DNA of 37,237 nt from a virus (taxonomy: Duplodnaviria; Caudoviricetes), in the IMG/VR virus record IMGVR_UViG_3300043395_000557, positions 1 through 37,237 of that record, one strand, 5' to 3'. This document shows, in pieces, positions 1,683 to 36,854 of the stretch (positions are counted from its first letter, which is position 1; every line of letters begins with the position of its first letter). Both the position numbers and the translations under genes were made by a program. Under the pieces are notes generated by a model. The model was not told the origin of the DNA. It did no database searches and was given only the letters and a program-made list of their open reading frames with translations.

Positions 1683-2846
1683 TTAGTCTGTAGTTGTGTC
1701 TGCGAATGCAACTGCATCCAGTTCTTCCCAGGCGATGCCGAAACGAACGAAGACAGTGTATTCAATTGTGTCCTTCTTAGGAACGTAGAAACGGTTAACA
1801 GTGATGTCTCGCTGGAAACCCCAGATACGGTTCTGTGGGAAGGTTAGGTCAACGAAGCCTGTTGGGTAGTAAGGAACTTCCAAAACAGGAACTCCGAGAA
1901 CACGAGTCTGACGTGCGCCACCAAAAGTCTGGTTAGCACCGCCGATGAACTCACCACGAGTACCTTCAGTTGAACCGATTGTTGAGTAAACAGTAGCGTT
2001 GTTCTTTACGATGTTAGCGAATGTGTCTGTACCAGCGTAGAACTTAAGTCCATTGGTAATAGCACGGTAACGGCGTGGCATTGCAAGAATCAGAGCCTGT
2101 AGTTTATCGGTTGTCCAATCGGTAAATGCTGCGTTAGAACCAACAAGTGATGTGTTGATTACTTCGTGAGCACTTCCAAGGTTTGAACCTGAACCAACGT
2201 TAGGGTTGGTCTTCTCCATGTTGATGAATCCGTTCATAATGCTTAGGAATGAACCTGTTGAACCGTCACCATTGATGGCTAGGTCTTCGATGTCGTTACC
2301 GAAAGCATTAGTCATAAGACGAACTAGGTGGTCCTCAAGAGCAGCACCTTCGATGTTGTCTTCAAGTGACTCTGCAGAAACTTCCCAGTCTAGACGAATC
2401 TTCTTTGTGGTTAGTTCAACCTTTGAGAAGGTTGCACCAGTGTTGGTGTATGTTGAAACACCCTGGCTAGCAGCACGAATAACACGGTCTCCCACGTTAA
2501 TCTTCTCTAGTTCCATTGTGTTTGCTCGCATTGTTACTCTGCGTCCGTCCTGAGCAAGTGTGGTTGCGTCCCAAACATAGTCGATAAATCGGCGAGCCTG
2601 TTCAGGGCGTAGGATACCAGTACCTGGATAAGTTGGACTTGCAGTAGCAGATGGGTTTACACCATTTGCACCAGTGGTTACACCAAAGTTAGCGGTTGGG
2701 CTGTTAGCCATGTAAGTACCGTGCTCTGAGAAAGAGCCTGTACCTGACGAAACGCTACCTGATGTACCGAAAGCACCTTCAGCGTTAGGGTAGTTTGAAA
2801 CTGGGCTAGCACCTGAAGGCATATTTTTGATAATTTCTTCTGACAT
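1683..2846 (-). CDS. major capsid protein (HK97 fold)
   Basis: GILRPEQARRFID, VELTTKKIRLDWEVSAESLEDNIEG, DIEDLAINGD motifs; follows protease gene; ATG at 2846 chosen from the GGAGGT RBS (ORF track starts at GTG 2858). Confidence 0.9.
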   Translation of the reverse strand: MSEEIIKNMPSGASPVSNYPNAEGAFGTSGSVSSGTGSFSEHGTYMANSPTANFGVTTGANGVNPSATASPTYPGTGILRPEQARRFIDYVWDATTLAQDGRRVTMRANTMELEKINVGDRVIRAASQGVSTYTNTGATFSKVELTTKKIRLDWEVSAESLEDNIEGAALEDHLVRLMTNAFGNDIEDLAINGDGSTGSFLSIMNGFINMEKTNPNVGSGSNLGSAHEVINTSLVGSNAAFTDWTTDKLQALILAMPRRYRAITNGLKFYAGTDTFANIVKNNATVYSTIGSTEGTRGEFIGGANQTFGGARQTRVLGVPVLEVPYYPTGFVDLTFPQNRIWGFQRDITVNRFYVPKKDTIEYTVFVRFGIAWEELDAVAFADTTTD

Positions 2847-21560: not shown

Positions 21561-21781
21561 TACCCTGGCAAATCTGAAAAAAATTTGTTTTTGACAAAAT
21601 CTGAATATTTTGCAAAGATGTATGATACACGTTTAAATACTACACGCACACCCGATTTAGTGAGCACACATGCGCCGAAAAAAAATAACGAAATGATAAC
21701 AATGTGTAAAACACTATCTAAATAAGGATAAATGTCGGTGGTGTCTTGTATAATAGAGACACAAGAAAGAAAAGGAAAAAA

Positions 21782-21976
21782 ATGAAAGCAACTATCTATT
21801 CAATCAAGTTCGACATTTTCAACGGAACTAACACCATTAGCCCTGTCTATGAAGTTCATTCGTGGGATAAGGCTCAGGAAGTCATTGACGCTACCGCTGA
21901 CCTAATCAAAGACATTCCTAACGCTTCATTCTCGTTTGAAGTATCTGGCAACTCTTCTGTTGCTTTGGCTTGGTAG
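21782..21976 (+). CDS. hypothetical protein (64 aa)
   Basis: MKATIYSIK...; follows promoter box and AAAGG RBS. Confidence 0.75.
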   Translation: MKATIYSIKFDIFNGTNTISPVYEVHSWDKAQEVIDATADLIKDIPNASFSFEVSGNSSVALAW

Positions 21977-21986
21977 GGGGTCTAGT

Positions 21987-22154
21987 GTGGGTAATCTCGC
22001 TCTTATCGTTGGTAATCTTATTCATCTGGCTAAGGCAGTAAACCAAAAGGCTATTCCTGTGGTCAAGGCGTATGCTTGTAAGCAATGCTCTTCACTTGCT
22101 AGTGTGTCACTAGTAGATAACAAGATAACAGTAAAGAAATGTAGGTGTGTGTAA
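21987..22154 (+). CDS. hypothetical protein with CxxC and CxC
   Basis: GTG start after AGGGGG; CKQC...CRC. Confidence 0.55.
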   Translation: MGNLALIVGNLIHLAKAVNQKAIPVVKAYACKQCSSLASVSLVDNKITVKKCRCV

Positions 22155-22228
22155 TGGGTGTTGAAACTATCTTACTGCTAGCAGTAGCGTATCTCTTCTT
22201 CAAGGATAAGGAGAAGAAAGATAAATAA
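22154..22228 (+). CDS. 24-aa membrane peptide
   Basis: TAATG coupling; MGVETILLLAVAYLFFKDKEKKDK. Confidence 0.45.
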   Translation: MGVETILLLAVAYLFFKDKEKKDK

Positions 22229-22507
22229 ACCATTTGCCTTCACTGGTCTAGGACTATTCCTAATAACAGCGTGGTCATTCATCTCACAGATACACTGGGG
22301 TAGTGTGATGGGTTGTGTAGCAGGGTATAGCCTAATGGATTGGTTGTTTCACTAAGTCTGTGGGTGTGTCGTCTTGACATACCCCAGATTTTTTGGCGCA
22401 GATTTTTGTAACGAATTGATAACGCTTGTAATAATAGGCGTGTTGCTACTAATAAATGTCCGTGGTAGCCCTTATACTAGTAGTAGAAACAAAGAAAGGT
22501 AAAACTA

Positions 22508-22750
22508 ATGAATAGAAAAGGTAACTGGCAAGTAGCAGGAACACTAGCCAATGGCAATGTGTTTAGGGTAATCGTATCAGCCCTGTATGGCTATGACGCT
22601 ATGCGTGTAGCCGAATACAAACTAGGTTCTAAAATCAAAGTAGGTTCTGCCATGCGTGTAGAACACTTCCCTAGTGCCGAGTGTGCCGAGTGTGGTGAGC
22701 ATGTACCTACACCATACCAGCCTACCCATGCATGCACTAGGCTAGTATAG
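22508..22750 (+). CDS. hypothetical protein with C-terminal Zn-ribbon-like CxxC..HxC
   Basis: promoter box 22455, AGAAAGG RBS. Confidence 0.75.
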   Translation: MNRKGNWQVAGTLANGNVFRVIVSALYGYDAMRVAEYKLGSKIKVGSAMRVEHFPSAECAECGEHVPTPYQPTHACTRLV

Positions 22751-22905
22751 GGCGTGTCGCTATTGCGATACCCCAAAAAATCGGCGCAGCCAAATATAAC
22801 GAAATGGTAACAATTCGTAACACACCCCTAAAAACACTATCTAAATGAACATAAATGTCGGTGGTTGCCCTTATACTGTAAGTAGATAAAAAGAAAGGCT
22901 AACTA

Positions 22906-23049
22906 ATGGCTAAAAAGAAAAGTGTCCTAACACACGAACAGAATGCTCGCTACCGAGAACTAATGTGGATTGCCCAGTTTGGCGATTTTATGTCTGGTTT
23001 TGAGTTTGAAGAACTGGCTAAGTTGATGAAACTAAAAGGCTATAAATAA
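22906..23049 (+). CDS. 47-aa protein, paralogue A
   Basis: MAKKKSVLTHEQNARYRELMWIAQFGDFMSGFEFEELAKLMKLKGYK; own promoter box and RBS. Confidence 0.8.
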   Translation: MAKKKSVLTHEQNARYRELMWIAQFGDFMSGFEFEELAKLMKLKGYK

Positions 23050-23052
23050 AAG

Positions 23053-23133
23053 TTTGGTTTAGGTGGTGAGCCTAATTTGGTGAGCCTAGAAATAGCAAAT
23101 AAACAAATTAGCAAATAAACACCTAAACACAAA
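23053..23133 (+). ncRNA. structured RNA element 1: long hairpin, two UGAGC/CAAAUAA loops, GAAA cap
   Basis: GTTTAGGTG/CACCTAAAC, CTAATTTG/CAAATTAG and CTA-GAAA-TAG stems separated by identical internal loops. Confidence 0.65.
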
Positions 23134-23167
23134 AAAGTAAAAACTAAAAAAAAGAAATGAGAAATAA

Positions 23168-23344
23168 ATGAGAAATAAAAGATACTATCAAAAAGTAAAT
23201 GGTGGAATAAAGTATTCTGCTGATTGCCCTAAATGTGGAATGACCTATACAGGTAATTCTTACTACTTCCAAAAAGACATAAAAGAAAAATGTTTTGACG
23301 GAATTACCGAATTGGTAAATTACCGAATTGCTGAAAAAAAGTAA
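23168..23344 (+). CDS. hypothetical protein (58 aa, CPKC)
   Basis: MRNKRYYQK...CPKCG...; AGAAATGAGAAATAA leader shared with other units. Confidence 0.6.
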   Translation: MRNKRYYQKVNGGIKYSADCPKCGMTYTGNSYYFQKDIKEKCFDGITELVNYRIAEKK

Positions 23345-23482
23345 GCAATTTTTTCGGCGCATAAAAAGTTGCGCCCCGATTTATAACAAAATGATAACAA
23401 AAAATAAATAATAGGCTAAATAGGCGTGTTTTGGGGGATAAATGTCGGTGGTTAGCCCTATACTATAAGTATCAAGAACTTC

Positions 23483-23537
23483 GGGAATGAGCCTGAGCAA
23501 ATAATCCAGAAATGGTGAGCCTCAGCAAATAAGTCCC
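23483..23537 (+). ncRNA. structured RNA element 2: hairpin with two opposed UGAGC/CAAAUAA loops, GAAA cap
   Basis: GGGA/TCCC, CTGAG/CTCAG and CCA-GAAA-TGG stems; in the 5' leader of ORF 23559. Confidence 0.65.
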
Positions 23538-23558
23538 CTAAAAAGAAAGGTGGCACTA

Positions 23559-23687
23559 ATGCCAAAAAACCCATACACCCTATACACCTATTCATTCAAC
23601 GGACAGCAGGTTGTTTCTGCTATCCACATCTATGACTTAGGCAAGTTTTTGCGTGAACACCCTGACGCTAAGGTTTTCAAAAAGTAA
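23559..23687 (+). CDS. hypothetical protein (42 aa)
   Basis: MPKNPYTLYTYSFNGQQ...; AGAAAGG RBS. Confidence 0.7.
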   Translation: MPKNPYTLYTYSFNGQQVVSAIHIYDLGKFLREHPDAKVFKK

Positions 23688-23740
23688 AATGTCGGTGGTT
23701 GCTGGTAAAATAATAACATCAAGAAGAAATGAGAAATAAA

Positions 23741-23941
23741 ATGGAAAATGAAAAAAAGAGATACACCTTTGGTGGCTTCACCTTTGGCACTGACAACCTG
23801 TTCAACCTAACTATTCTAGTTCGCAACCACGCTGGACACGGAACAAGCAACTCTGTTGAACTTGGACTAGAACTAAACACTGCTGAAATCCAAGAACTAA
23901 TCACTGTTCTACTAACTAGAAATGTAAAGGAAGATAACTAA
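23741..23941 (+). CDS. hypothetical protein
   Basis: MENEKKRYTFGG...; follows promoter box 23688 (alternative start 23729). Confidence 0.7.
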   Translation: MENEKKRYTFGGFTFGTDNLFNLTILVRNHAGHGTSNSVELGLELNTAEIQELITVLLTRNVKEDN

Positions 23942-24132
23942 TGATGACACGCAAAGACTATGTTTCAACTGCTAACATTCTCGCTGGTGTTCGTGAGAGT
24001 TTGCTCTCGCTAGGTGTTGAAGGTGAAGACATCTTCTCTAATCTAGTTGCTGACTTTGCTGAAATGTTTGAAGCCGATAATGAGCGTTTCCAGAGTGAGC
24101 GTTTTGATAACGCTTGCTGGCAAGAAGACTAA
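23941..24132 (+). CDS. conserved phage-type small protein (MTRKDY...DNERF..ERF..AC)
   Basis: coupled start, AAGGAAG RBS; motif pattern recurrent in phage early proteins. Confidence 0.75.
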   Translation: MMTRKDYVSTANILAGVRESLLSLGVEGEDIFSNLVADFAEMFEADNERFQSERFDNACWQED

Positions 24133-24280
24133 GTTTTGTGGGTGGCTTCGGCTACCCCAAAATTTCGGCGCAGAGTTTTATAACGTTTTGATAACAGACT
24201 GCGACACACCCCCTAAATGTCCAATAAATGTCAGTGGTGTGGTGTAATGTAATAGTATCAAAAGAATAGGAAATAAATAA

Positions 24281-24424
24281 ATGGCTAAAAAGAAATCAAC
24301 ACTTACAGCAACTCAGGCTATCCGTTATCGTGAGTTGATGTGGACTGCTCAGTTTGGTGAGTTTATGTCAAACACCGAGTTTGCTGAACTTGCTAACCTA
24401 ATGAAGATAAGGGGATACCACTAA
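24281..24424 (+). CDS. 47-aa protein, paralogue B
   Basis: MAKKKSTLTATQAIRYRELMWTAQFGEFMSNTEFAELANLMKIRGYH. Confidence 0.8.
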   Translation: MAKKKSTLTATQAIRYRELMWTAQFGEFMSNTEFAELANLMKIRGYH

Positions 24425-24600
24425 TGCCATTCGTGCTAATTTTTGTTGGTCTGTTTTTCTGGTTAGAGTTTGTAATTCGTGCTTGGCTAGTAGTTGGAAC
24501 AGATAACTATGCTCTGGTAAATAGTTATACCAATTCGGCTATGCTAGGTTTGTGGATGATGGTTTTTGGTGGTCTGTGGTTATTGCTTCGCAAGCAGTAG
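24424..24600 (+). CDS. 58-aa two-TM membrane protein
   Basis: TAATG coupling; two hydrophobic segments. Confidence 0.6.
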   Translation: MPFVLIFVGLFFWLEFVIRAWLVVGTDNYALVNSYTNSAMLGLWMMVFGGLWLLLRKQ

Positions 24601-24730
24601 CCCTACCCCGAAAATCGGCGCAAAAATTTATAACAAAATGATAACAACTATCTAAAAAGGCGTGTTGAAGAAAATAAATGTCGGTAGCCCCCTGTATAAT
24701 CGAAGTAGATAAAAAGAAATGAGAAATAAA

Positions 24731-24916
24731 ATGAACAGATACACCAAAGAAAACTTGCTAGATGTAAACTACCTAATCGGGCAGTATGTCGCTATCACTA
24801 AAAACATTGACCTAGCCGAAGAAAAGTTTGGCGTGTTTCCAACCGAAGCCGAGTTGCGTGAAGTGGCTATGCTTGCTAAGGCTATCAAGGCTCTCGGTGG
24901 AAAACTGCCATACTAA
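24731..24916 (+). CDS. hypothetical protein
   Basis: MNRYTKENLL...; follows promoter box 24677 (alternative start 24719). Confidence 0.7.
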   Translation: MNRYTKENLLDVNYLIGQYVAITKNIDLAEEKFGVFPTEAELREVAMLAKAIKALGGKLPY

Positions 24917-24964
24917 AATGTCGGTGGTTAGATGTATAATGGAAACAGAAAGAAAGGATAACTA

Positions 24965-25135
24965 ATGATTGTTTTGAGTTTTGAAACTTGGGAAGAGTTT
25001 GATAACGCCATTGGCGACATTGCTTCGGCATTCTACAACGCTTCGCTTCAACAGGAAGAAGAAGAGATGGATTGTGCTAGGTGTGGCGAATGGGTCAAGC
25101 CTAGCGAACACCCTTCGATTGGTTGTGATGTGTAG
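24965..25135 (+). CDS. 56-aa acidic protein with CxxC..H..C
   Basis: MIVLSFETWEEFDNAIG...CARCGEW..H..GC; AGAAAGGA RBS. Confidence 0.7.
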   Translation: MIVLSFETWEEFDNAIGDIASAFYNASLQQEEEEMDCARCGEWVKPSEHPSIGCDV

Positions 25136-25169
25136 TTATTCACAGCACAGGCTAACTGCCTGTGGATAA
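25136..25169. promoter_or_regulatory. inverted pair of DnaA-box matches around a hairpin
   Basis: TTATTCACA (25136-25144) and TGTGGATAA (25161-25169, reverse complement TTATCCACA). Confidence 0.45.
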
Positions 25170-25309
25170 CTTTTCGGCGCAGACTTTTTGTGCGCCCCCC
25201 GAAAATAACAGTTTAGTTACGATTGCCAAAAACTTTCCCCAAGTTTAAGAAGTTTAAGATAAATGTCGGTGGTCCCCTGTATAATGGAACTATCAACGAA
25301 AGGCTAACT

Positions 25310-25516
25310 ATGAATGAAATTGAAACCGAAATTCGCTCGCTAATGGCTGAGGTAGAAGCCGAAGGCTTGGTAGGCAATACTGCTGATGAAGAAGGCGACC
25401 CTCGCCTATTCCGTATCGGCAATCTTCTCTCTCTGCTTCAAGTAGTAGATTGGGAAGCCTATAAGCAATTGGTCATTGAGAAGTTCAATGTCCCTGCCGA
25501 TTACTTTGAAGACTAA
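25310..25516 (+). CDS. acidic hypothetical protein
   Basis: MNEIETEIRS...; GAAAGG RBS after promoter box 25262. Confidence 0.75.
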   Translation: MNEIETEIRSLMAEVEAEGLVGNTADEEGDPRLFRIGNLLSLLQVVDWEAYKQLVIEKFNVPADYFED

Positions 25517-25526
25517 GGAGAACCAA

Positions 25527-25658
25527 ATGGTATCAATCGAAAAACTAATCGAAATGCGTGTCTTGCGTGAGTCAATGTTTGGTTCTGGCGACTGGTATGT
25601 TATCTATACTGAAGACGGACCAAAAGATGTTTCTTTGGCAGAACTGACTGCTGAATAA
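25527..25658 (+). CDS. hypothetical protein (43 aa)
   Basis: AAGGAG RBS; MVSIEKLIEMR... Confidence 0.7.
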   Translation: MVSIEKLIEMRVLRESMFGSGDWYVIYTEDGPKDVSLAELTAE

Positions 25659-25751
25659 ACTACCCTTCGGGGTGCGCAAAATTTTTGGCGTGTCGCTACC
25701 AATAAATGTCGGTGGTAGGCTGTATAATGGTATTATCAAGAAAGGAAACTA

Positions 25752-25904
25752 ATGGACACGATTTGCTCATTCTGTCTAAACATCTTCGCACCAGACACTA
25801 TTGTTTGTAGTGTTTGCCACGAATACAAGGGCATTATGCCACTAAACAAAGAAACACTAATCTACCTAGACCTAGACCTAGAAGAATACGCTGACTACCT
25901 ATAA
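25752..25904 (+). CDS. 50-aa protein with two CxxC pairs
   Basis: MDTICSFC...CSVCHEYKG; AGAAAGGA RBS. Confidence 0.75.
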   Translation: MDTICSFCLNIFAPDTIVCSVCHEYKGIMPLNKETLIYLDLDLEEYADYL

Positions 25905-25954
25905 TGTCGGTGGTTGGCTGTATAATAAACTTATCAAAAGAAATGGAGAAATAA

Positions 25955-26113
25955 ATGGAAGAGTTTTACGCAGACAGAGATAGAGATTTACAGAACTATC
26001 TTCTTACAAATGCTGAGTTGCTAGAAAAGGGTTTGCTCTCGCCAGCAGACATCTTCACACACGCCTACACGCTAGGTGCTTTACAGAATGCGACTAAGGG
26101 AGAAAATGACTAA
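25955..26113 (+). CDS. hypothetical protein (52 aa)
   Basis: MEEFYADRD...; GGAG RBS. Confidence 0.65.
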   Translation: MEEFYADRDRDLQNYLLTNAELLEKGLLSPADIFTHAYTLGALQNATKGEND

Positions 26114-26261
26114 CGAACAAATCTTTTTTTATGTGGCTATTGGGTCTATTGTTCTTATTGGCTCTTATGCTGTGGTTCTCGCAGTAATGCTAGACAAGGC
26201 TAGCAAACTTATTGAAAAGCAGAAGGCTGAAATAGCCAGAATGGTCTTGCCACCCTTTTAG
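26106..26261 (+). CDS. single-TM membrane protein
   Basis: MTNEQIFFYVAIGSIVLIGSYAVVLAVML...; GGGAG RBS. Confidence 0.7.
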   Translation: MTNEQIFFYVAIGSIVLIGSYAVVLAVMLDKASKLIEKQKAEIARMVLPPF

Positions 26262-26330
26262 GGCTGGCTCGGCTGCGCAAAAAATGTCAGTGGCTAGTTG
26301 TATAATAATCTTATCAACGAAAGGATACTA

Positions 26331-26474
26331 ATGAACGAAGACTACGAGATGGACGAAACATGGATGGATGGCGATGCTCTTGCCTCTGCTGGTTGGGGGA
26401 CTGACGAGGACTATGGCTACTACCCCGAAGACGACTGGGGAACAGTTGAGTCCGAACTCTTTGGAGACTGCTAA
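26331..26474 (+). CDS. 47-aa very acidic protein (DALASAGWGTDEDYG motif)
   Basis: 16 D/E and no K/R; GAAAGGA RBS. Confidence 0.75.
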   Translation: MNEDYEMDETWMDGDALASAGWGTDEDYGYYPEDDWGTVESELFGDC

Positions 26475-26592
26475 CGCAGTCCCATTGGGGTGCGCAGATT
26501 TTTGCGCCCCCTGCCCCTAAATTCATTTACGATTACAAAATAAGTTTCCCAGGTTTAAGAACAATGTCGGTGGTGTCCTGTATAATGTAGGT

Positions 26593-26763
26593 ATGAAGAA
26601 AAGAAAGAAACCACTAAACAAGTTAGCCGAAGCGACACGCAAGGCACACTCTAAGGCTCTATTTGAGAGCCTAATGCTAAACCCACACCTAGTAGAAACT
26701 CCTGCTAATCGCAAGGGAAGCCGTCAGGCTAACAAGCGTAAGGCTATCGCTGAACACCTATAA
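26593..26763 (+). CDS. 56-aa very basic protein, leaderless
   Basis: MKKRKKPLNK...RKGSRQANKRKAIAEHL; ATG 7 nt after TATAAT. Confidence 0.7.
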   Translation: MKKRKKPLNKLAEATRKAHSKALFESLMLNPHLVETPANRKGSRQANKRKAIAEHL

Positions 26764-26814
26764 TGTCAGTGGTTGCCTGTATAATCTAACTAACACTAAA
26801 AAGAAAGAAACCCT

Positions 26815-27291
26815 ATGACTACTCTTGAAAAGCAAACTGTATCCGTCACTACCGACTGCCTATGCGAGAATGAAGACGGAACACCGCAAGACTATTGCGA
26901 TGGTTGCTATGAATGGCAAAAAGAAGATGTCTTTATGTTGCTAGGCGAATGGTATCTTGCCAATGGTATTGAAGAAGATGACCCTATTCTAATCGAAGGC
27001 ACTGGAATGACTTGGCAACGCCTAAGCGGACACAAGTGGACAACGCCAATGGAACTTGACGGAGCGTTAGCCCTGAATGGCGACTTCAAGATTGAATGGT
27101 ATCTTGAGAATGGCGAACTAACCGCTAGACGCTGGAGCCACGATGAACCGACTGGCACTGGACTATTTACCTTTACACACTACAAGGACTGCAACGACTG
27201 TGGAGAGCCTGTCAAGGCAGACATACACGCTGAAGAACTTGGTATGTGTGTTGATTGTTCAAACAACTACTACTCTCACGAAGGAGAATAA
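26815..27291 (+). CDS. hypothetical protein with Cys clusters at both ends
   Basis: 158 aa; CLC..CDGC and CNDC..CVDC; SHDEPTG. Confidence 0.8.
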   Translation: MTTLEKQTVSVTTDCLCENEDGTPQDYCDGCYEWQKEDVFMLLGEWYLANGIEEDDPILIEGTGMTWQRLSGHKWTTPMELDGALALNGDFKIEWYLENGELTARRWSHDEPTGTGLFTFTHYKDCNDCGEPVKADIHAEELGMCVDCSNNYYSHEGE

Positions 27292-27377
27292 TGGAAGACT
27301 GGAAGCAAACTCTAAAAGAACTTAGCGAGCAACTCCGTAAGGAGCACCTTGCCAAACTCACAACTAAGGAGAAGTAA
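27291..27377 (+). CDS. 28-aa peptide
   Basis: AAGGAG RBS, TAATG coupling. Confidence 0.5.
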   Translation: MEDWKQTLKELSEQLRKEHLAKLTTKEK

Positions 27378-27496
27378 TGGAAGAGAACATCAAAGAACTG
27401 TTCGACCAGTTTCACGCTGGCGAGATAGATGTACTGGAACTAATGGCTGAGTTAGAGACTGAGCGTTTTGACGGTGACATCATCGACTACCTGTAA
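27377..27496 (+). CDS. 39-aa acidic peptide
   Basis: AAGGAG RBS, TAATG coupling. Confidence 0.55.
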   Translation: MEENIKELFDQFHAGEIDVLELMAELETERFDGDIIDYL

Positions 27497-27573
27497 TGGG
27501 TAGTTTTTTGCGCAGAAAATTTAAATGTCGGTGGTTACGAGTATAATGTTATTACCCCTAAGAAAGTGAAACT

Positions 27574-28290
27574 ATGTTAGTCCGTTCAAAAGATAGAAAA
27601 GTTGCCAACCTTGTAAATAAAGGTGGTAAGCAGCCTTTGATTGCCAATACCTTCGGTTTGCCGAGTGGTAAAGCATTCTCCTGCCCTGGTGCTACTAGTG
27701 TATGCGAAACTATTTGCTACGCTGGCAAGTTAGAAAAAGTATTCAAGGGTGTGCGTGATGTAATCACTAGCAACTATGAGCAACTAATTTCAGTAGGTTT
27801 GTTTGGCAAGATTGACTTGCTAAGTCAAATGATTGAAGAGTTTGTTGCTGATTGCGAAAAGCGTAATGCCGAAAAGTTATTCCGTATTCACTGGGACGGA
27901 GATTTCTTTGATGAAGAGTATGTTGTTGCTTGGCGTGAAGTCATTCAACAAAATAAGGATGTTCAATTCTGGGTCTATACCCGAAGCGACTTTGCTATTC
28001 CGTTGCTGATTGACCTGCCTAACCTTGCTCTGTATTTCTCTGCCGATAGTGCCAACAAAACTTTGGCGTGGGAGTTGAAGAAAAAGTATGGCGTGAAGTT
28101 AGCGTATCTTGCTAAAGACTTTGCTACTGGTAAAAGTGATTTCAATGAGCAACAAGAAAAGTCTGCTGTGCCTTGCCCTGAAAACAACAAGAAGATACCG
28201 CTGATTAGCGAAAAGGGTTCTGCCTGTGTTGTTTGTTCTCAATGTGTTTTTGCTCGCAATGACATTCTATTCTCTGCGAGTAAAAAATGA
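27574..28290 (+). CDS. GP88-like protein (Cys-cluster, radical-SAM-like fold)
   Basis: FGLP...SCPGATSVCETICYA, FRIHWDGDF, FWVYTRS, CP..CVVCSQC. Confidence 0.7.
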   Translation: MLVRSKDRKVANLVNKGGKQPLIANTFGLPSGKAFSCPGATSVCETICYAGKLEKVFKGVRDVITSNYEQLISVGLFGKIDLLSQMIEEFVADCEKRNAEKLFRIHWDGDFFDEEYVVAWREVIQQNKDVQFWVYTRSDFAIPLLIDLPNLALYFSADSANKTLAWELKKKYGVKLAYLAKDFATGKSDFNEQQEKSAVPCPENNKKIPLISEKGSACVVCSQCVFARNDILFSASKK

Positions 28291-28299
28291 GAGGATACT

Positions 28300-28368
28300 A
28301 TGGAAAATTGTTTATTCGTAAGCGTAGTTATAGGCGTAATCGTACTGCTAGTTTTCTTCATCCAATAG
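28300..28368 (+). CDS. 22-aa hydrophobic peptide
   Basis: GAGGA RBS; MENCLFVSVVIGVIVLLVFFIQ. Confidence 0.4.
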   Translation: MENCLFVSVVIGVIVLLVFFIQ

Positions 28369-28454
28369 GGTGAGGAAATCTGCGCAAAAAAATCGGGTAT
28401 TTACAATGTCGGTGGTCAGGTGTATAATGGATTTACGAAAGAAAGAGAGAACCC

Positions 28455-28865
28455 TTGGAAGATTATTGGGACGAAGTAGAAAACGCTGTTCATTACGCTA
28501 GTGGTATTGCCTTTGATGGTTGCCACAAGATTTATGTGCTTATGGACGAAACGCAGGTTGGACTTATGCGTGAGTATGAGTATGAGTTTATTTTTACTAA
28601 GGCAGATAAGAATAGAAACGAAATGCTAGAACAACTACGAGAGTGGTTTGCTAATAGTTGCTTCCTAAGATTTATTGAAGCCGTTCAATCTGTTCCCGAA
28701 GGACAAGACGAGAATGACGGATTTACTACGCTCATTCCACAAGGGGCAGAACAGGAAGAAGAAGAAGAAAACGAATGGTGCTGGAAGTGTAGTTATCGTG
28801 AGATTTATGAAGACGACCTATGCGAAGAATGCTATGAAGCCGAAAACGGAGATGACCAAGACTAA
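28455..28865 (+). CDS. acidic hypothetical protein with C-terminal CxxC pairs
   Basis: 136 aa, TTG start; IAFDGCHKIY, SCFLRFI. Confidence 0.75.
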   Translation: MEDYWDEVENAVHYASGIAFDGCHKIYVLMDETQVGLMREYEYEFIFTKADKNRNEMLEQLREWFANSCFLRFIEAVQSVPEGQDENDGFTTLIPQGAEQEEEEENEWCWKCSYREIYEDDLCEECYEAENGDDQD

Positions 28866-28914
28866 ATGTCGGTGGTTGGTTGTATAATAGAACTAACAAG
28901 AAAGAGAGATAAAA

Positions 28915-29505
28915 ATGGGAACTAGACACCTTATTACTGCCTTTGACGAACAGGGCGAACTGAAAGTTGCTCAATACGGACAATGGGACGGATACCCAGA
29001 AGGACAGGGTATCACTATGCTAAACATTCTACGCTTTACTACCCGAACCGATTACACAGGTAAGTTAGTTAGTGAAGTTGCTGACGGACTTGCTAGATGT
29101 CGCTGGGGTAGTGAAGACGAACTCAATGCTATCTACAATAGCCTACCAGAAATGAGTTATGTTGGAACTGACGACCAGAAGTCTTTTGACTTGCTGTATC
29201 CTAATCTAACCAGAGATACAGGTGCTAACATTCTAAATGTTGTTGCTTGGTCTGTTGGCGAAGTGTTGCTTGTAGACCACAGCGATTTCGCACAAGACGA
29301 ACTATTTTGCGAAGGTATTTATTCTGTGAACTACCAGAGCAAGATGTTCACAAGTAAGTATGGAGAGTTGCTGGTTTCATTTCCACTTGACGACCTGCCA
29401 ACTAATCAGGAATACCTTGACGCTTTTGATAAAGCCAAGAGAGATTTCTACGATAATGTAAGGGCTAACGCCAGAGCAGAGAGTGAAGAGGTGGGGGCTT
29501 TATAG
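28915..29505 (+). CDS. conserved phage protein (MGTR...QWDGYP pattern)
   Basis: 196 aa; MGTRHLI...AQYGQWDGYPEGQG. Confidence 0.8.
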   Translation: MGTRHLITAFDEQGELKVAQYGQWDGYPEGQGITMLNILRFTTRTDYTGKLVSEVADGLARCRWGSEDELNAIYNSLPEMSYVGTDDQKSFDLLYPNLTRDTGANILNVVAWSVGEVLLVDHSDFAQDELFCEGIYSVNYQSKMFTSKYGELLVSFPLDDLPTNQEYLDAFDKAKRDFYDNVRANARAESEEVGAL

Positions 29506-29586
29506 CCCTTGCTTTTTCTGCGCCGATTTTCAATGTCGGTGGTAGGGAGTATAATGGATTTACGATAAAGAAAAGGAAATCCCAGA

Positions 29587-29709
29587 ATGAACCAAAACAC
29601 TAACCCCATAATCTTGCTAGAAGGGGCAATCAACGAAGATGTAATCGAAAGCCTATCTGCCGAAAACATCGAACTCATTATGTCTATTTTAGAGAAAGCA
29701 GGTTACTAA
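29587..29709 (+). CDS. 40-aa acidic peptide
   Basis: AAAGGA RBS; coupled to the next ORF. Confidence 0.6.
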   Translation: MNQNTNPIILLEGAINEDVIESLSAENIELIMSILEKAGY

Positions 29710-30014
29710 TGATTGAATACAACAACACAACTAACGCAGACTTTATGTATTTCGCAGGAGATGGCTCTTGGGGAGATGCCAGCGACATTGTTATTGTCAA
29801 TGTTGAAGAACTTGACGGACACTTTGGCGAGTTCCTTGACGAAGTAAATGAATGGCAACGACCAGAGTTTATGCGTTGGTATGTAGAGAACCAAACTCAC
29901 GACCAAGACCCACACACCTACACCGCTTGCCGAGTTTGTGAGCAGTGGAACGAGGGCTTGACCGAAACCGAAATCCTAGAAGAACTAGACAACCAAGACG
30001 CTGACGAAAACTAA
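29709..30014 (+). CDS. acidic hypothetical protein
   Basis: 101 aa; YFAGDGSWGDA; CRVC. Confidence 0.75.
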   Translation: MIEYNNTTNADFMYFAGDGSWGDASDIVIVNVEELDGHFGEFLDEVNEWQRPEFMRWYVENQTHDQDPHTYTACRVCEQWNEGLTETEILEELDNQDADEN

Positions 30015-30063
30015 ATGTCGGTGGCTACCTGTATAATAGAACCCTAAACAAGAAAGAAGAAAA

Positions 30064-30516
30064 ATGAACGAATACACAGACCCTAACGCAACACCAACAG
30101 ACGAAGAGATTGCTAAGGCTATTTCTCACCCTGTTCTAACTCACCTAAACAGCAGACTAGAAAACCTACAAAGCCAACTTACAGCAAGTCAGGATACCGT
30201 TATGCGTTTGCGTGATAAGTATCGCACAACCGAATACAAACTAACTGACCTGCTAAAAGAGTTGCTTGATAACGAAGACATCACCTATGATGACGCACAG
30301 CGTATCGCTGACCTGTTTGATAGCATTACTCTAACTAAACAGATTACCATTCACTACACCGTTAGTGCTACTGCCACAGTAGAAGTGCCTTACAACGCTG
30401 ATGATGAAGATGTAGCGTCTTCTACTTATGTTGAGAGAGTTGAGTTCTATACCGACTTTGATAACGCAGAAGTGTTGGAAGAAGACCACGACATAGAAGA
30501 TTGGCGAGTTGGGTAG
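30064..30516 (+). CDS. acidic hypothetical protein with coiled coil
   Basis: 150 aa after promoter box 30014. Confidence 0.8.
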   Translation: MNEYTDPNATPTDEEIAKAISHPVLTHLNSRLENLQSQLTASQDTVMRLRDKYRTTEYKLTDLLKELLDNEDITYDDAQRIADLFDSITLTKQITIHYTVSATATVEVPYNADDEDVASSTYVERVEFYTDFDNAEVLEEDHDIEDWRVG

Positions 30517-30545
30517 GGTTCTTATTCCTTTCTTTTCCCCTGCCC

Positions 30546-30573
30546 CAACCTGAGCAAGTTGTAAAACGGCTCA
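30546..30573 (+). ncRNA. H-type pseudoknot copy 1
   Basis: S1 CAAC/GTTG, S2 TGAGC/GCTCA, linker TAAAAC. Confidence 0.6.
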
Positions 30574-30746
30574 CCCAAAATCTGCGCAAAGTCTGCGCCC
30601 CCGATTGTAACAATTAGGTTACGAAGGTTACGAAACACCCCCCAAATCCCCATAATGTCGGTGGTAGGGGCTATAATAGATACACAGGCAGAGAACCGAA
30701 CAAGACAAAATAATTTACGAAAACTAAAAATTTTTCCAGAAAATGC

Positions 30747-30775
30747 TTGACTTTCAGTTTCTCTTCCTGTATAAT
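30747..30775 (+). promoter_or_regulatory. canonical housekeeping-sigma promoter
   Basis: TTGACT-N17-TATAAT. Confidence 0.75.
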
Positions 30776-30842
30776 AGACTTATCAACAAAAGTTGGTAAT
30801 AGATAAATGAAGCAAGTCCTAGAAATAGGCAGAAAGGTCATT

Positions 30843-30998
30843 ATGACTAACATCACAGCACCACAGGTTGGCTCACCATTCACTACTAGCGTAAGCAAGG
30901 TGTCTGGCATTGTTCAGGAAGTCGTGGCGAACAAGAACGGCTCGTTCCGTGTTCGTCTTGATGTTGCTGGTCAGCCACGCTGGACTACCATCAAGTAA
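30843..30998 (+). CDS. 51-aa beta-rich small protein
   Basis: AGAAAGG RBS; PQVGSPF...SGIVQEVV...FRVRLD. Confidence 0.7.
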   Translation: MTNITAPQVGSPFTTSVSKVSGIVQEVVANKNGSFRVRLDVAGQPRWTTIK

Positions 30999-31011
30999 TC
31001 CCCATTGGGTA

Positions 31012-31038
31012 ATCCTGAGTATGATGAAAAACTGCTCA
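31012..31038 (+). ncRNA. H-type pseudoknot copy 2
   Basis: S1 ATC/GAT, S2 TGAGTA/TGCTCA, linker GAAAAAC. Confidence 0.55.
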
Positions 31039-31122
31039 CCCCCAAAATCTAAATGTCGGTGGTCTCGGCTATAATAGACCTATAACAAATAAACCCCCTA
31101 ACAACAAACAAAGGAGATAACT

Positions 31123-31575
31123 ATGGCAAGAGCCATTAGCGTCAAAATCCCAACAGGCAAAGTCATTGAGATGATTGAGAGCAAGATTGCTCAAATCAAC
31201 GAAGACATTGCTACCTACCCTGCTCGCAAGGCTCAGTATGTAGCAGACCGACAGGCTTACACCGAAAAGGTTGTAGCCATTGTTGCTGACCTACTAACCA
31301 AGCGTGGTGCTGAGTTGCTAGCAACCGAAGACCACGACAGCAAGGTTAGCGTTAGCCAGAACTATCGCAACGCTGTGGAACTTACCATTGGTAAGGACTT
31401 GCTTGCTGGTTTGGAAAAGCCAGAAGAGCCACAAGACCCAGAGCCAAAGGGCTACTATGGTCGCACCTATGGTTCTAAAAAGGCAGAGTTGGAGAAGACC
31501 CTAACTCTACTCAAAATGAGTGAGCAGGAGACGATTACTTCGTCTGCCTACAACAGCGTTTTGGAACTGCTGTAA
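31123..31575 (+). CDS. hypothetical protein (150 aa)
   Basis: AAGGAG RBS after promoter box 31052. Confidence 0.8.
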   Translation: MARAISVKIPTGKVIEMIESKIAQINEDIATYPARKAQYVADRQAYTEKVVAIVADLLTKRGAELLATEDHDSKVSVSQNYRNAVELTIGKDLLAGLEKPEEPQDPEPKGYYGRTYGSKKAELEKTLTLLKMSEQETITSSAYNSVLELL

Positions 31576-31595
31576 AACCATAGGCTTACGCCTAA

Positions 31596-31622
31596 ACACC
31601 TAAGCAAGTGTCTAAACTGCTT
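31596..31622 (+). ncRNA. H-type pseudoknot copy 3
   Basis: S1 ACAC/GTGT, S2 AAGCA/TGCTT, linker CTAAAC. Confidence 0.6.
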
Positions 31623-31843
31623 CCTGAATTGGGGTAGCGACTAGACAGGTAAAATAATTTCGCTAATCTTCCTGCTAGAAATGGCAGGGAGATTTTTTTG
31701 CGCAAGTTTTTTTCTGCGCCCCGATTTTTATAACGTTTTGGTTACGATTATAACAATCTTTGCCTAGCCTATTTACAATGTCGGTGGTAGCCTGTATAAT
31801 AGGACTATCAACAAAAAATCACTACTAATGAAAGGTGTGTCTT

Positions 31844-32863
31844 ATGGCTCACGAACTAGAAATCAACGAAGAAACAGGCGAAGCAACTTTTGCTAGCCTA
31901 CGCCAACCTGCTTGGCACAATCTTGGAACTGTGTTTCAGGAAGAAGTAAATACTGCCGAAATGCTAAAACTAGCAAAACTAGACAACTGGAATGTTCGCC
32001 TAGAAGATGTGGCAATCCCCGAAGGGTTTGAGAGCGACAAGTCTTACTCGTTCGTATCTCGCACTAACCCATTCAACGCAGACCAGACAGACATTCTTGG
32101 TGTCGTTGGTGAGCGTTATGTTCCCCTACAAAACGAAGACCTGTTCTCGTTTGGTGATAACCTGCTAGACGGTGGTGGTCGTTGGGAAACTGCTGGCTCT
32201 ATCAAGGGTGGTCGTCAGGTGTTCGGTTCTATCGCTCTTGCTGATAGCATTACCCTAGACCCTAATGGTCGTGCTGATAAGATAGACAACTATCTTCTAA
32301 TCAACACAAGCCACGATGGTTCTATCGCTATTCAGGCAAGTATCACGCCTGTTCGTGTTGTGTGTGCTAACACTCTAAACCTTGCTCTCTCTGCCTTCAA
32401 GGGTCGCAAAGCCCCTAAGCAGTCATTCAAGATTAGACACACGCAGACTGCCGAAGGTAAAATCGCAGTTGCTCGTGAAGCACTTGGTCTTGCTAAGACT
32501 TACATTGACGATTTTTCTGTAATGGCTAACGCTCTTATTGAAAAGGAAATCACTAAGTCGCAGTTTGACGAAATCGTAAAGTTGGCTTACCCTGCCCCTG
32601 AGAAAGACGCTAAGGGTTCGTTCAAGAAGTATGACGCAAAGGTAGATTTGCTCAACAGCATTTATGTTGGTCAGTTCAACGACACCATTGCTGGAACTGC
32701 TTGGGGAGCATACAACGCTCTAACCGAACGCCTAGACTGGTATCGCTCGGCTCGTGGTGGAAGCAACGAAAGCATTTACGCTTCGGCTTCTGGTTTTGAC
32801 CCTGTAATCAACGCAGAGAAAAACCGTTTGATGAAGGTTGTCCAACAGGTAGTAATGGCGTAA
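31844..32863 (+). CDS. DUF932 / TIGR03299-type phage-plasmid protein
   Basis: PAWHNLG, LGVVGERYVPLQN, WETAGSIKGGRQVF, NTSHDGS, TPVRVVCANTL, IRHT, GTAWGAYNALTE. Confidence 0.85.
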   Translation: MAHELEINEETGEATFASLRQPAWHNLGTVFQEEVNTAEMLKLAKLDNWNVRLEDVAIPEGFESDKSYSFVSRTNPFNADQTDILGVVGERYVPLQNEDLFSFGDNLLDGGGRWETAGSIKGGRQVFGSIALADSITLDPNGRADKIDNYLLINTSHDGSIAIQASITPVRVVCANTLNLALSAFKGRKAPKQSFKIRHTQTAEGKIAVAREALGLAKTYIDDFSVMANALIEKEITKSQFDEIVKLAYPAPEKDAKGSFKKYDAKVDLLNSIYVGQFNDTIAGTAWGAYNALTERLDWYRSARGGSNESIYASASGFDPVINAEKNRLMKVVQQVVMA

Positions 32864-32878
32864 GCCATTCACTATCGC

Positions 32879-32904
32879 TGGCTCACCCCTTCGGGGGTGG
32901 GCTG
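32879..32904 (+). terminator. UUCG-capped terminator-like hairpin
   Basis: GCTCACCCC-TTCG-GGGGTGGGC followed closely by a T-run and GCGC. Confidence 0.65.
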
Positions 32905-32989
32905 GCAATTTTCTGCGCAAAAATTTTGGGTATTTACAATGTCGTAGGCATCCTGTATAATAGAGTATAAACCCAAGAGAAAGAGAAAA

Positions 32990-33409
32990 ATGTCCAGATA
33001 CGAAAACAGAACCTTTGGTACTATTGTCCATGTCCTAGATGTTGATAAGGCTACTAAGTTTATCAAGGATAGGTTCGAAGCACCAGACCTAGACATCACA
33101 GCAGAACGCATGGCTATTGTCAATGGTAAGAATGGCGTGGCAACTGTTATTGACGAAGGTGTTGGCTGGTATGCTGACGCTAATGGTAAGTTGCCTATAA
33201 ACTATTGGGGTAAGAATGGTAGCGGTGGCTATCTTGACATTACCCCCGAAGAGTTGGCTCCGCTAATCTCTGATGAAACTATTGACCTTGCTGACCATGT
33301 GCGAGTATTTGGCGACAGGCTAGAAACTAACCTATGGATTTGGCAGAACTACGCCAAGGGCTACCCACAAGACAAGATGTCGGTGGTTAGTGCTACAATG
33401 GTAGCCTAA
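32990..33409 (+). CDS. hypothetical protein (139 aa)
   Basis: after promoter box 32938; C-terminus runs through the next promoter box. Confidence 0.75.
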   Translation: MSRYENRTFGTIVHVLDVDKATKFIKDRFEAPDLDITAERMAIVNGKNGVATVIDEGVGWYADANGKLPINYWGKNGSGGYLDITPEELAPLISDETIDLADHVRVFGDRLETNLWIWQNYAKGYPQDKMSVVSATMVA

Positions 33410-33425
33410 GAGAAAGAGAAACCCT

Positions 33426-33674
33426 ATGAAAAAGAAATACTATGTTCAGGTTCAGGTGAACTATGATGGCGACATCTGGGCTGAGAGTGAAGCAGAAGCA
33501 GAAGACCTTGCTTGGCATTCCTACTATGGTGATGACCCTGCCTTGACCTACGACAGCGTAGAAGAAATCAAGGTAGAAGAATACGACCACTGCGAGAAGT
33601 GCGGTGTCCCTGATGATGATTGCGATTGTTGCCAAGATTGCGATAAGGTCTATGACGAATGCGAGTGTGAATAA
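33426..33674 (+). CDS. acidic, Cys-rich small protein
   Basis: WAESEAEAEDLA motif; CEKC..CDCCQDC..CEC. Confidence 0.75.
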   Translation: MKKKYYVQVQVNYDGDIWAESEAEAEDLAWHSYYGDDPALTYDSVEEIKVEEYDHCEKCGVPDDDCDCCQDCDKVYDECECE

Positions 33675-33793
33675 TGCCTGAACTATACAAGATTAGACTT
33701 ACAGACCAATACTACAATCTCTATGAGTGTAAAGGTTGCGGTAAGCAGTGGAAGTCTTACTACAAAAAGATTGGGCATAAGCGATGTCCATAA
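33674..33793 (+). CDS. 39-aa Zn-finger-like peptide
   Basis: TAATG coupling; YECKGCGK...H..C. Confidence 0.55.
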   Translation: MPELYKIRLTDQYYNLYECKGCGKQWKSYYKKIGHKRCP

Positions 33794-33855
33794 CAGGCTG
33801 CCTAGTTATAGTTATTTTGATAATCATAGTATTTATGTTTCAGTAAAGGAGAAAA

Positions 33856-34131
33856 ATGGAAACTGAATTCACACTAGCGGATGAATTGTATGAAACTAAG
33901 AAAATGGTTACTGCAACCATTACCTACACTATTGAGGTAAACAAAGATAATGTTTTCATTAGTGAGATTGAAGACTTCTGGGGAGAAAGCCAAGAAGACT
34001 ACGATGAACTAAAACGAACTGATGAAGAACTAATAAATGCAGCAGGTAGCGAACTAGCAGAAATGATTTACAACTCTGTCAAGTATAACGACCTTGCTGA
34101 CATGATTAGCATTGAGGTAAATGAAGCATGA
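33856..34131 (+). CDS. acidic hypothetical protein
   Basis: 91 aa; AAGGAG RBS. Confidence 0.75.
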   Translation: METEFTLADELYETKKMVTATITYTIEVNKDNVFISEIEDFWGESQEDYDELKRTDEELINAAGSELAEMIYNSVKYNDLADMISIEVNEA

Positions 34132-34292
34132 GTGAAGATAAAGAGATGATGATTGAGTTTATCAACAATCTTCTCAAGACACCAAACCTAGATTTGCTTC
34201 CTACTAGTTCTGTTCTTGGATTGCTCAAGATGCGACTAGAAGACCCTTATGCGTTTATGCGAGTTAAATCTGTTTTAGACCCTGTAGAGTAA
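34128..34292 (+). CDS. hypothetical protein (54 aa)
   Basis: ATGA overlap; MSEDKEMMIEF... Confidence 0.6.
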   Translation: MSEDKEMMIEFINNLLKTPNLDLLPTSSVLGLLKMRLEDPYAFMRVKSVLDPVE

Positions 34293-34347
34293 TCTATGGG
34301 GTTCTAAAATCTGCGCAAAATTATTATGTCAAGTAGTACGGATAAAC

Positions 34348-34480
34348 ATCAAATCCCGATTACGAATAGCAATATTTTTCCCAGGATATGCAGACATCAA
34401 ACACCGATTACGAATGATGTCATGCATCCCAGGATATTTTATTATCAAACCACGATTACGAAGGGTGTTTATTTTTCCTG
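34348..34480 (+). repeat. three 48-bp-period repeats ATCAAA-N3-CGATTACGAA-N12/13-TCC
   Basis: ATCAAA at 34348, 34396, 34444; CGATTACGAA at 34357, 34405, 34453. Confidence 0.85.
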
Positions 34481-34481
34481 A

Positions 34482-34679
34482 TTAATCGTATTTACTATCT
34501 TGCTCAACAAGGTATTCAAGATTATCAATGATATCTGGTAAATCAGTTTCAATTACACCAGTTATAAGAGCATCAATTTCAACAGCCAAGACTTCCCATT
34601 GTTTATCAGTAAGGTTTAGTCCATAGTCTCTATCTATAGCACTACGAGTAATTAGTATTTCTAGTTTATTTTCTAACAT
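34482..34679 (-). CDS. acidic hypothetical protein, near-leaderless
   Basis: MLENKLEILITR...; start moved to just after the minus-strand promoter box. Confidence 0.7.
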   Translation of the reverse strand: MLENKLEILITRSAIDRDYGLNLTDKQWEVLAVEIDALITGVIETDLPDIIDNLEYLVEQDSKYD

Positions 34680-34686
34680 ACCGTCC

Positions 34687-34710
34687 ATTATAGCAGCCAC
34701 CACTGACATT
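34687..34710 (-). promoter_or_regulatory. minus-strand copy of the box promoter
   Basis: AATGTCAGTGGTGGCTGCTATAAT. Confidence 0.85.
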
Positions 34711-34975
34711 ATTTGTTGGAGGCAATGAATATGTCATCCAATACCTCAAACCCAGTGTCTTCAACTTCAAGACTAGCCAATAGCAAATCAAATGTTTCAT
34801 TGACAAACTTATCAGCCATCTCCGTGCTTTTTACGATGCCAGCAGATAACGCATAAGCCAAGGGTAGACCCAAATCATTGTATTCGATAAAGTCTTCAAA
34901 GTCTCCATCAAACCTATAGTTCATCCATAGTTCAGCGAGTATGTCTTGCTTATTCTCTTGTGTAGTCGTATTCAT
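34709..34975 (-). CDS. acidic hypothetical protein
   Basis: 88 aa; ILAELW..FEDFIEYNDLGLPLAY. Confidence 0.8.
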   Translation of the reverse strand: MNTTTQENKQDILAELWMNYRFDGDFEDFIEYNDLGLPLAYALSAGIVKSTEMADKFVNETFDLLLASLEVEDTGFEVLDDIFIASNK

Positions 34976-36356: not shown

Positions 36357-36387
36357 AGGGGTACTTTCTATTGGGGGTTACATATCT

Positions 36388-36848: not shown

Positions 36849-36854
36849 ACCCCT

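Follow-up and report, generated by a model that had tools for sequence, protein, structure and literature searches.

The first-step-transfer repeat of phages T5 and BF23 is a ca. 10 kb early repeat of small genes (PMC10644984), and the PeSL cassettes of the T4-type phages RB49 and phi1 flank small genes with a repeated intergenic stem-loop and an early promoter (PMC2839356). Here we describe an early-gene array in a 37,237 bp stretch of viral DNA (IMGVR_UViG_3300043395_000557, a linear record, 26% complete; the whole stretch is hereafter the window), at whose cassette junctions a short word, TGCGC(A/C), which we refer to as the tag, is found. We regard the array as an analogue of the T5-type early repeat, composed of PeSL-like units.

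Like the T5/BF23 repeat (PMC10644984), the array is additionally poor in restriction-type words and has DnaA-box-like words nearby; it differs in that T5 must lack sites there, whereas the window packs one word into every junction. Two-step DNA entry is a feature of T5 and a possible one of the window phage; how T5 DNA escapes its own host-degrading nuclease is stated to be unresolved (bioRxiv 10.64898/2026.04.02.716235). PeSL cassettes have sigma-70 −35/−10 promoters, whereas the array promoters are of PafBC type with a −35-like word in 3 of 26 plus-strand motifs, and no lineage-specific tag or partner nuclease is described for PeSL in the available part of PMC2839356. Like the tag, the nick sites of T5, tf and phiKMV are short, vary between lineages and go with a phage enzyme; they lie on one strand, with R/GCGCRGG as the T5 consensus (PMC3517423); in contrast, the window's tags occur in both orientations, are strictly intergenic and are limited to the early array. 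PafBC-dependent promoters are known from bacterial chromosomes (PMC8635444, PMC11804915), and the array promoters match their motif, few with a −35. In defining features the array departs from T5 nick sites, from PeSL promoters and from stoperators. The last of these, from cluster A mycobacteriophages, are 13 bp asymmetric words, oriented with transcription and bound by the lysogeny repressor; they resemble the tag in that many copies of a phage-specific word lie near gene boundaries and co-evolve with a phage protein, as the tag may do, whereas tags are 5–6 bp and orientation-free, and the proposed partner in Streptomyces cluster BE phages (hereafter BE phages) is an HNH protein. Neither the tag nor an HNH partner is described in the literature searched, whose coverage leaves most subscription journals and supplements outside, or mentioned in the available part of PMC10690885.

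The window is a tailed-phage fragment with capsid, portal and ribonucleotide reductase genes in its left part, and the sequencing runs that best match it are freshwater or aquatic. Its capsid protein is ca. 41% and its DUF932 protein ca. 54% identical to those of Streptomyces phages of the Stanwilliamsviridae, and judged by these proteins the window phage is kin of the BE phages. Kinship with these phages, the presence of WhiB in relatives and the PafBC-type promoters lead us to infer an actinobacterial host. Stanwilliamsviridae Streptomyces phages have a direct terminal repeat of ca. 11 kb (PMC5764925), and the homologous DUF932 gene of BE phages lies inside the terminal repeat (10,666 bp in Samisti12); by analogy, the array would be the first-injected terminal-repeat region.

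A word largely confined to cassette junctions

GCGC occurs 23 times in the window, once at 1915, 22 times from 21,672 to 34,313 and nowhere beyond, and all 22 array copies are intergenic, spread over 17 junctions (Table 1). Array coding DNA (9,571 bases) contains none, far below the 21.9 copies expected at background frequency under a maximal-order Markov model (Poisson P 3e-10), junction DNA (3,108 bases) contains 22 against 4.2–9.2 expected (Poisson P 2e-4 to 8e-10), and the first 21.6 kb contains one against 15–19 expected. These counts agree with the original prediction, which had reported a single copy in the first 21.6 kb, 22 intergenic copies with none in array open-reading frames (ORFs), 17 occupied junctions and five doublets 11–16 bp apart. 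Within the doublets the GCGC starts lie 11, 12, 14, 15 and 16 bp apart, and the second member reads GCGCCCC in all five. Every site reads TGCGC or its reverse, GCGCA, with 9 TGCGCA, 7 TGCGCC and 6 GGCGCA counted; the true word is TGCGC(A/C), a double-stranded tag found in either orientation (strand-counts of 16 sense and 15 antisense). Five other palindromes (AGCT, CCGG, CGCG, GATC and GGCC) do not occur anywhere in the window, not even in the junctions, which argues that GCGC is kept in the junctions on purpose rather than merely tolerated.

In a junction the stop codon is followed by a hairpin, the tag, an AT-rich spacer and the promoter, after which come the ribosome site and the next gene. 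A hairpin of −8 kcal/mol or lower lies directly upstream of 71% of 285 tags against 6% downstream, and 216 tags from 23 genomes have a median position of −90 relative to the promoter (interquartile range 82–104), so that the tag lies where one transcript ends and, in most cases, clear of the footprint of the promoter that follows. The same 216 tags show no helical phase to the promoter at 10.5 bp (R=0.01), and a helically phased activator site was rejected. In their TGTC core and in the spacing to the −10, the array promoters agree with the PafBC consensus tGTCgg(N10)tA(N3)T (PMC8635444), most with GG after TGTC, and 16 of the 24 motifs have GCGC within 100 bp upstream. The array genes are cleared of ACGT (0/28), ATAT (0/27), TTAA (1/37), TGCA (5/48) and GTAC (4/29), words largely retained in the left 21.6 kb.

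Other words accompany the tag in the junctions. Hairpins of the form CCTGAG(C/T)A...AAAC(T/G)GCTCA lie behind stop codons at 30553–30573 and 31015–31040, a form that recurs in many relatives. The spacers between tag and promoter (e.g. 21686–21700, 22410–22422, 22796–22812, 23383–23400, 25136–25169) carry TAAC repeats 11 bp apart, which we take to be GlnR/MtrA-like, TGTGGATAA words, presumably DnaA-box-like, and GGCGTGTC/GACACGCC, which we assume to be WhiA-like; all are possible host-regulator sites or decoys. In many relatives ATTACGAA recurs between tag and promoter.

The same slot in uncultured relatives and cultured BE phages

Conservation in relatives, which the original prediction had called for, held for the slot and failed for the word: across the 56 related loci and 48 relative contigs compared, at least 14 tag words occur in uncultured relatives (hereafter lake phages), all at the same slot, and GCGC itself is not what is kept. 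The words, 5–8 bp in length, include TGCGCM, GTGCGCCC, GAGCGCY, GGTCGGCA, GGTCGGGC, GCTCGGGS, GGTGCCCC, GGGTACS, GTCGATV, GGTCGAYC, ACCGATGC, GGCGCGGC, GGGCGGCC and CCCGCGGG. Orientations are about equal in most genomes, and the tag is invariant while its flanks differ between junctions. A quick DUF932 tree shows 28 changes of the tag label, against a minimum of 13 and a shuffled mean of 34.5. Tags differ within sister pairs, among them L007 and L009, whose DUF932 is identical. At orthologous junctions TGCGCA in L029 is exchanged for GGTCGGCA in L032 with the flanks kept, likewise in L043 versus L041, and in sister phages all tags are replaced together. As the whole set of sites is replaced in place with its flanks kept, a trans-acting reader with changed specificity is needed. 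Slot, geometry and in-place replacement of the word thus support the earlier proposal of a protein-recognised site at cassette boundaries that leaves each unit intact. GCGC is the recognition site of HhaI and HinP1I, an identity raised in the same proposal; since relatives place at least 13 other words in the same slot, it is probably incidental. A genome-end or terminase site was rejected, as lake contig ends do not fall on tags.

The tag words belong to those avoided family-wide in genes, with observed/expected ratios mostly of 0.02–0.46. With tags picked from junction DNA only, 73 copies were found in own coding DNA against 206 expected in 24 genomes, a total that includes one mis-picked motif (G009); own-tag avoidance was clearest in G002 (3/18.8, others 0.92) and G012 (2/9.5, others 0.94). 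Summed over 24 contigs, with motifs refined post hoc, array coding sequences contain 3 own tags against ca. 46 expected, and after motif refinement G006 has 16 GTCGATV in junctions and 0 against 33 expected in genes. GATC and AGCT, where they are not avoided genome-wide, are cleared from early genes and kept within ca. 30 bp around the tag, for example GATC in G007 (observed/expected 0/23 in array coding sequences, 17/10 in junctions, 77/83 elsewhere), such that breaks near the tag look tolerated. As a separate observation, the coding DNA of one relative (G010, L093–L097) contains 0 CATG against ca. 166 expected, an absence shown by no other relative examined.

The 17 cultured BE phages share the hairpin-then-tag layout, with a tag that is a 5-N3-5 pseudo-palindrome. 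In each of them the array ends with an HNH endonuclease gene that is transcribed away from the array (HNH matches were found in 89 Streptomyces phage records); in Samisti12, whose array design and tag slot are like the window's, the product is gp021 (YP_009611460.1), annotated only as HNH endonuclease and without a function in the literature searched, and its counterparts are gp021 in Bmoc, gp027 in Tomas and gp024 in Coruscant. Four tag classes sort with four N-terminal HNH segments (about residues 17–31) in 17/17 phages (Table 1). Bmoc (Samistivirus) and Riptide (unclassified, Bmoc-like) have a class-B tag, and in Bmoc the HNH is the sole ORF of 14 compared that is closer to the Karimacviruses with the same tag than to class-A Samistiviruses (1/8 in Riptide); its identity shifts toward Karimacviruses by +11 points in Bmoc and +10 in Riptide against −3 to −45 points for other ORFs, some of the ORFs compared being alternative frames. 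This argues that the match between tag and HNH does not reflect shared repeat ancestry. The tag class suggested by the HNH was correct, blind, in 3/3 metagenomic contigs: there are 8 class-B sites in L224 and 14 class-A sites in L233, and in L238, whose HNH segment is Coruscant-like, the site reads TGCGC-CCG-GCGCA, with the window's word as its half-site (L243 was discarded as a false match). The BE half-sites GTCGG and TGCGC are also the two commonest lake-phage tags.

Residues H78, N92 and N101 and the zinc cysteines C55, C97 and C100 are invariant in 35/35 HNH homologs, and the predicted fold (predicted local distance difference test, pLDDT, 81) has HNH neighbours, with viral models at E 2e-4. 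The HNH of BE phages may read the tag as a dimer and cut. In Samisti12 the full BE site occurs 11 times in the repeat against once in 109 kb and is too long for an avoidance test, and the half-word CCGGAC shows no depletion outside the repeat (20 against 22–29). A terminase or genome-end site was rejected here too: Samisti12 begins with the half-tag GTCCGG (L057:1–6), but the genomes of Karimac, Bmoc and Coruscant begin without their tag.

Table 1. Tags of the window, other features of the array, HNH genes of lake phages and tag classes of BE phages
Feature	Position	Strand	Remark
Early-gene array	21660..34320	+	ca. 38 small ORFs in hairpin / tag / spacer / promoter / gene cassettes
Tag TGCGCC, first junction	21671..21676		
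Tag GGCGCA	22395..22400		
Tag GGCGCA	22783..22788		
Doublet GGCGCA ... TGCGCC	23356..23375		
Tag GGCGCA	24167..24172		
Tag GGCGCA	24617..24622		
Doublet GGCGCA ... TGCGCC	25176..25196		DnaA-box-like words before it at 25136, 25161
Tag TGCGCA	25673..25678		abuts UUCG hairpin
Tag TGCGCA	26274..26279		nearest of the tags to its own promoter, about −36
Doublet TGCGCA ... TGCGCC	26491..26508		
Tag TGCGCA	27509..27514		
Tag TGCGCA	28381..28386		
Tag TGCGCC	29519..29524		
Doublet TGCGCA ... TGCGCC	30583..30599		
Doublet TGCGCA ... TGCGCC	31699..31720		directly behind hairpin + T-tract
Tag TGCGCA	32914..32919		
Tag TGCGCA, last in window	34312..34317		
Single TGCGCC outside array	1914..1919		inside major capsid gene
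24 PafBC-type promoter motifs	21733..33399	+	TGTC-N12-TAnnnT
GP88-domain gene	27574..28290	+	array cargo
DUF932 gene	31844..32863	+	anchor common to BE phage terminal repeats, ca. 54% identity
Acidic ORF, 68 residues	34482..34688	-	only covarying gene found
Unrelated HNH	G027:C1:26937-27404		
Unrelated HNH	G046:C1:24618-25157		
Unrelated HNH	G029:C1:36904-37668		
BE class A, GTCSG-N3-CSGAC-like			9 phages; HNH N-terminal segment N(A/S)R(I/V)RRQ-type
BE class B, GGCCG-CCC-CGGCY			6 phages; HNH N-terminal segment TAGS(A/K)YRRQ
BE class C, GACCG-N3-CGGTC			Tomas; HNH N-terminal segment GAGSLAKRRI
BE class D, GGCGC-N3-GCGCC			Coruscant; HNH N-terminal segment GTGSRTQRRI

The reader of the tag and rival explanations

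We regard as real a site-plus-enzyme system at early-cassette boundaries that is re-keyable and strongly selected, with a candidate enzyme in cultured phages. As to its action, we tentatively favour the reading that the tag is the target of a tag-specific nuclease, which would cut or nick the early region at cassette boundaries and spare the cassettes themselves. Its breaks would fall where each promoter-gene-hairpin unit survives, and the same enzyme may hit tens to ca. 1,500 sites in the host chromosome. A base-composition model gives ca. 800–1,500 TGCGCM sites in a 1.4-Mb host and ca. 190–310 full BE class A/B sites in an 8.5-Mb, 72% GC host, and at such modelled numbers an enzyme made by the phage would harm the host chromosome as well.

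A number of observations weigh against this nuclease reading. A T5-like phage is sensitive when its first-injected repeat contains restriction sites (PMC10644984), such that double-strand cuts there can be harmful. Eight of the 24 promoters have no tag inside 100 bp, and in G016 the tag occurs in a single orientation (10/0). After allowing for family-wide avoidance, own-tag copies in coding DNA number 73 against 93 expected (P=0.02), a modest extra avoidance, and GCGC is avoided in coding DNA of 22/26 genomes regardless of tag, so that avoidance alone is not attributable to the tag in the window. The BE terminal-repeat HNH was not detected in the window's lineage, with no ortholog detectable when the window and the 48 contigs of relatives were compared (30,137 six-frame ORFs), PF01844 was found in 0/6 records that are ≥90% complete, column tests found no conserved lake-phage protein with residues that follow the tag, and lake tags are not 5-N3-5 palindromes and show no N3-spaced pairs. 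The BE HNH itself matches PF14279 and PF01844 weakly in 9/9 (best E 9e-6), its first member scores below the Pfam curated cut-off, and its fold matches to the PDB are weak (best E 0.04, none reaching E 0.001).

The search for a reader in the lake phages yielded one lead. Sporadic HNH genes in G027, G029 and G046 lie beyond the array end and are unrelated to the BE one (Table 1). Identity contrasts, presence/absence and column tests for a covarying protein returned noise or co-ancestry, and the candidate readers dropped comprise a 73-residue family adjoining WhiB (one column), families 1, 3, 4, 9 and 108, of which family 3 scarcely differs between G038 and G039 despite their different tags, and a helix-turn-helix gene at the array start, which does not follow the tag. 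The family of the 68-residue acidic ORF is present in 7/11 TGCGC-tag contigs against 0/28 other-tag contigs covering the locus, genomes that are not independent, and a remote homolog lies at the same place in G017. Its product could be an inhibitor (a DNA mimic) or a partner of the GCGC reader, which we offer as a lead; many array proteins are as acidic. The reader itself is somewhat more likely to be a diverged phage protein, favoured by invariant, non-palindromic 8 bp tags and by half-sites common with BE phages, than a restriction enzyme of the host, for which the missing HNH gene and the restriction-like words speak. In the available part of PMC6329791, actinobacterial bins from Lake Biwa show no methylated motifs.

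Binding without cutting is possible, if on balance unlikely. A phage or host protein would occupy the tag between the hairpin and the promoter that follows and act as insulator, roadblock or repressor, in the manner of a short stoperator; the main role of the HNH fold in BE phages would then be that of a sequence-specific clamp. The tag comes straight after hairpins, many without a U-tract, which speaks for binding; its exclusion from transcribed genes suits a roadblock, and binding would sidestep the lethality of cutting the repeat. However, the catalytic H-N-N is kept in 35/35 HNH homologs, a 5–6 bp operator would be swamped by the modelled host sites (ca. 800–1,500), the tag has no helical phasing to the promoter, and other restriction-type palindromes cluster at the tag spot, which points to tolerance of breaks.

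Returning to the nuclease, we consider doubtful an extension in which the tag would act as a self-cutting ignition switch, with the first-entering repeat chopped to functional one-gene pieces, the host chromosome attacked at the same word, and single-stranded DNA (ssDNA) acting through PafBC on the early promoters. PafBC is switched on by ssDNA, with resected break ends named as one source of it (PMC11804915), so breaks could fire the array's own promoters; in the most speculative step, ssDNA from the breaks would switch on host PafBC, an activator type suited to the array promoters. The nuclease would be the terminal-repeat HNH in BE phages and a diverged or host enzyme in lake phages, a small acidic protein would later shut the cutter off, and word and enzyme would be re-keyed together between lineages, as lock and key.

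Programmed single-strand nicks in virion DNA of the kind seen in T5, tf and phiKMV, which would be made late and repaired once the DNA has entered, are improbable. T5 nick sites do contain GCGC (PMC3517423), the weak fold neighbours of the BE HNH include an HNH nicking enzyme (PDB 4h9d, E 0.2), and nicks would not destroy the repeat. However, the known sites are one-stranded (PMC3517423) whereas the tag is split 16:15, R/GCGCRGG was found at 0/23 GCGC contexts on either strand, read by eye, and the BE HNH lies in the early repeat, not among late genes. The T5-type nick site of the original prediction is accordingly unsupported as to strandedness and consensus.

Still less probable is a recombination or cassette-exchange site, used for PeSL-like excision or swapping of gene units. 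Its support comes from the PeSL-like repeated promoter and stem-loop units (PMC2839356) and from strain-contig joints inside junctions, three of which adjoin GCGC (31040–32914, 27496–29526 and 22788–21685), among the 15 of 81 joints listed, at 85% likeness and possibly from other strains. Other joints, however, lie at the promoter element or inside genes, tag orientation is random yet genes are never singly inverted, and the breakpoints of a 2.4 kb inversion in the window are not at GCGC. The least probable reading, that the tag is a neutral leftover or methylation mark at junctions which tolerate a host restriction or methylase site spread by gene conversion, draws on the family-wide avoidance of tag words in genes and runs against the absence of five other avoided palindromes from window junctions, the invariance of the tag between differing flanks, its wholesale replacement in sister phages and the lack of a phage methylase (PF00145 in 0/30 and PF01555 in 0/32 relatives), which likewise disfavours the phage methylation proposed earlier.

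Neighbouring features and meaning

Several further features surround the array. Ahead of the first cassette, at 21655–21668, lies a conserved TAGTGAGCACAC-like word, also present in several relatives, which may mark the repeat boundary. The paralogous ORFs at 22906–23049 and 24281–24424 encode basic proteins of 47 residues in separate cassettes, a sign of cassette duplication. Beyond the last tag, the segments 34340–34470 and 36960–37237 are non-coding with repeated ATTACGAA, reminiscent of the repeat-rich injection-stop region of T5, and the intervening block at 34470–36890 contains about nine early-type genes with a PafBC-type promoter (36876, minus strand). This block is inverted relative to G001, G003 and G037, where the matching block continues the array, and may be a real inversion or an assembly artefact. 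In the left part, a tandem pair of glycosyltransferase genes (PHROG 13126; 17320–19334) adjoins tail-associated genes, and the ribonucleotide reductase at 9237–11255 is B12-dependent (class II), whilst several relatives have class I NrdE/F/I instead. No tRNA was found in the window, a single-sequence fold of the 28915–29505 product reached pLDDT 38, and Atlas searches with two array proteins returned no family.

If the nuclease reading is true, the phage does the reverse of what the T5 rule demands and deliberately puts a nuclease target into the part of its DNA that enters first. This would offer testable answers to two questions, namely what purpose site-specific breaks in phage DNA serve and how a terminal-repeat phage tells its own DNA from that of the host, and the cultured BE phages allow direct testing. 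The BE HNH has 150 residues, of which a stretch of ca. 15 seems to set specificity, with four variants matched to four 13 bp sites, and may therefore represent a small, re-targetable rare cutter or nickase.

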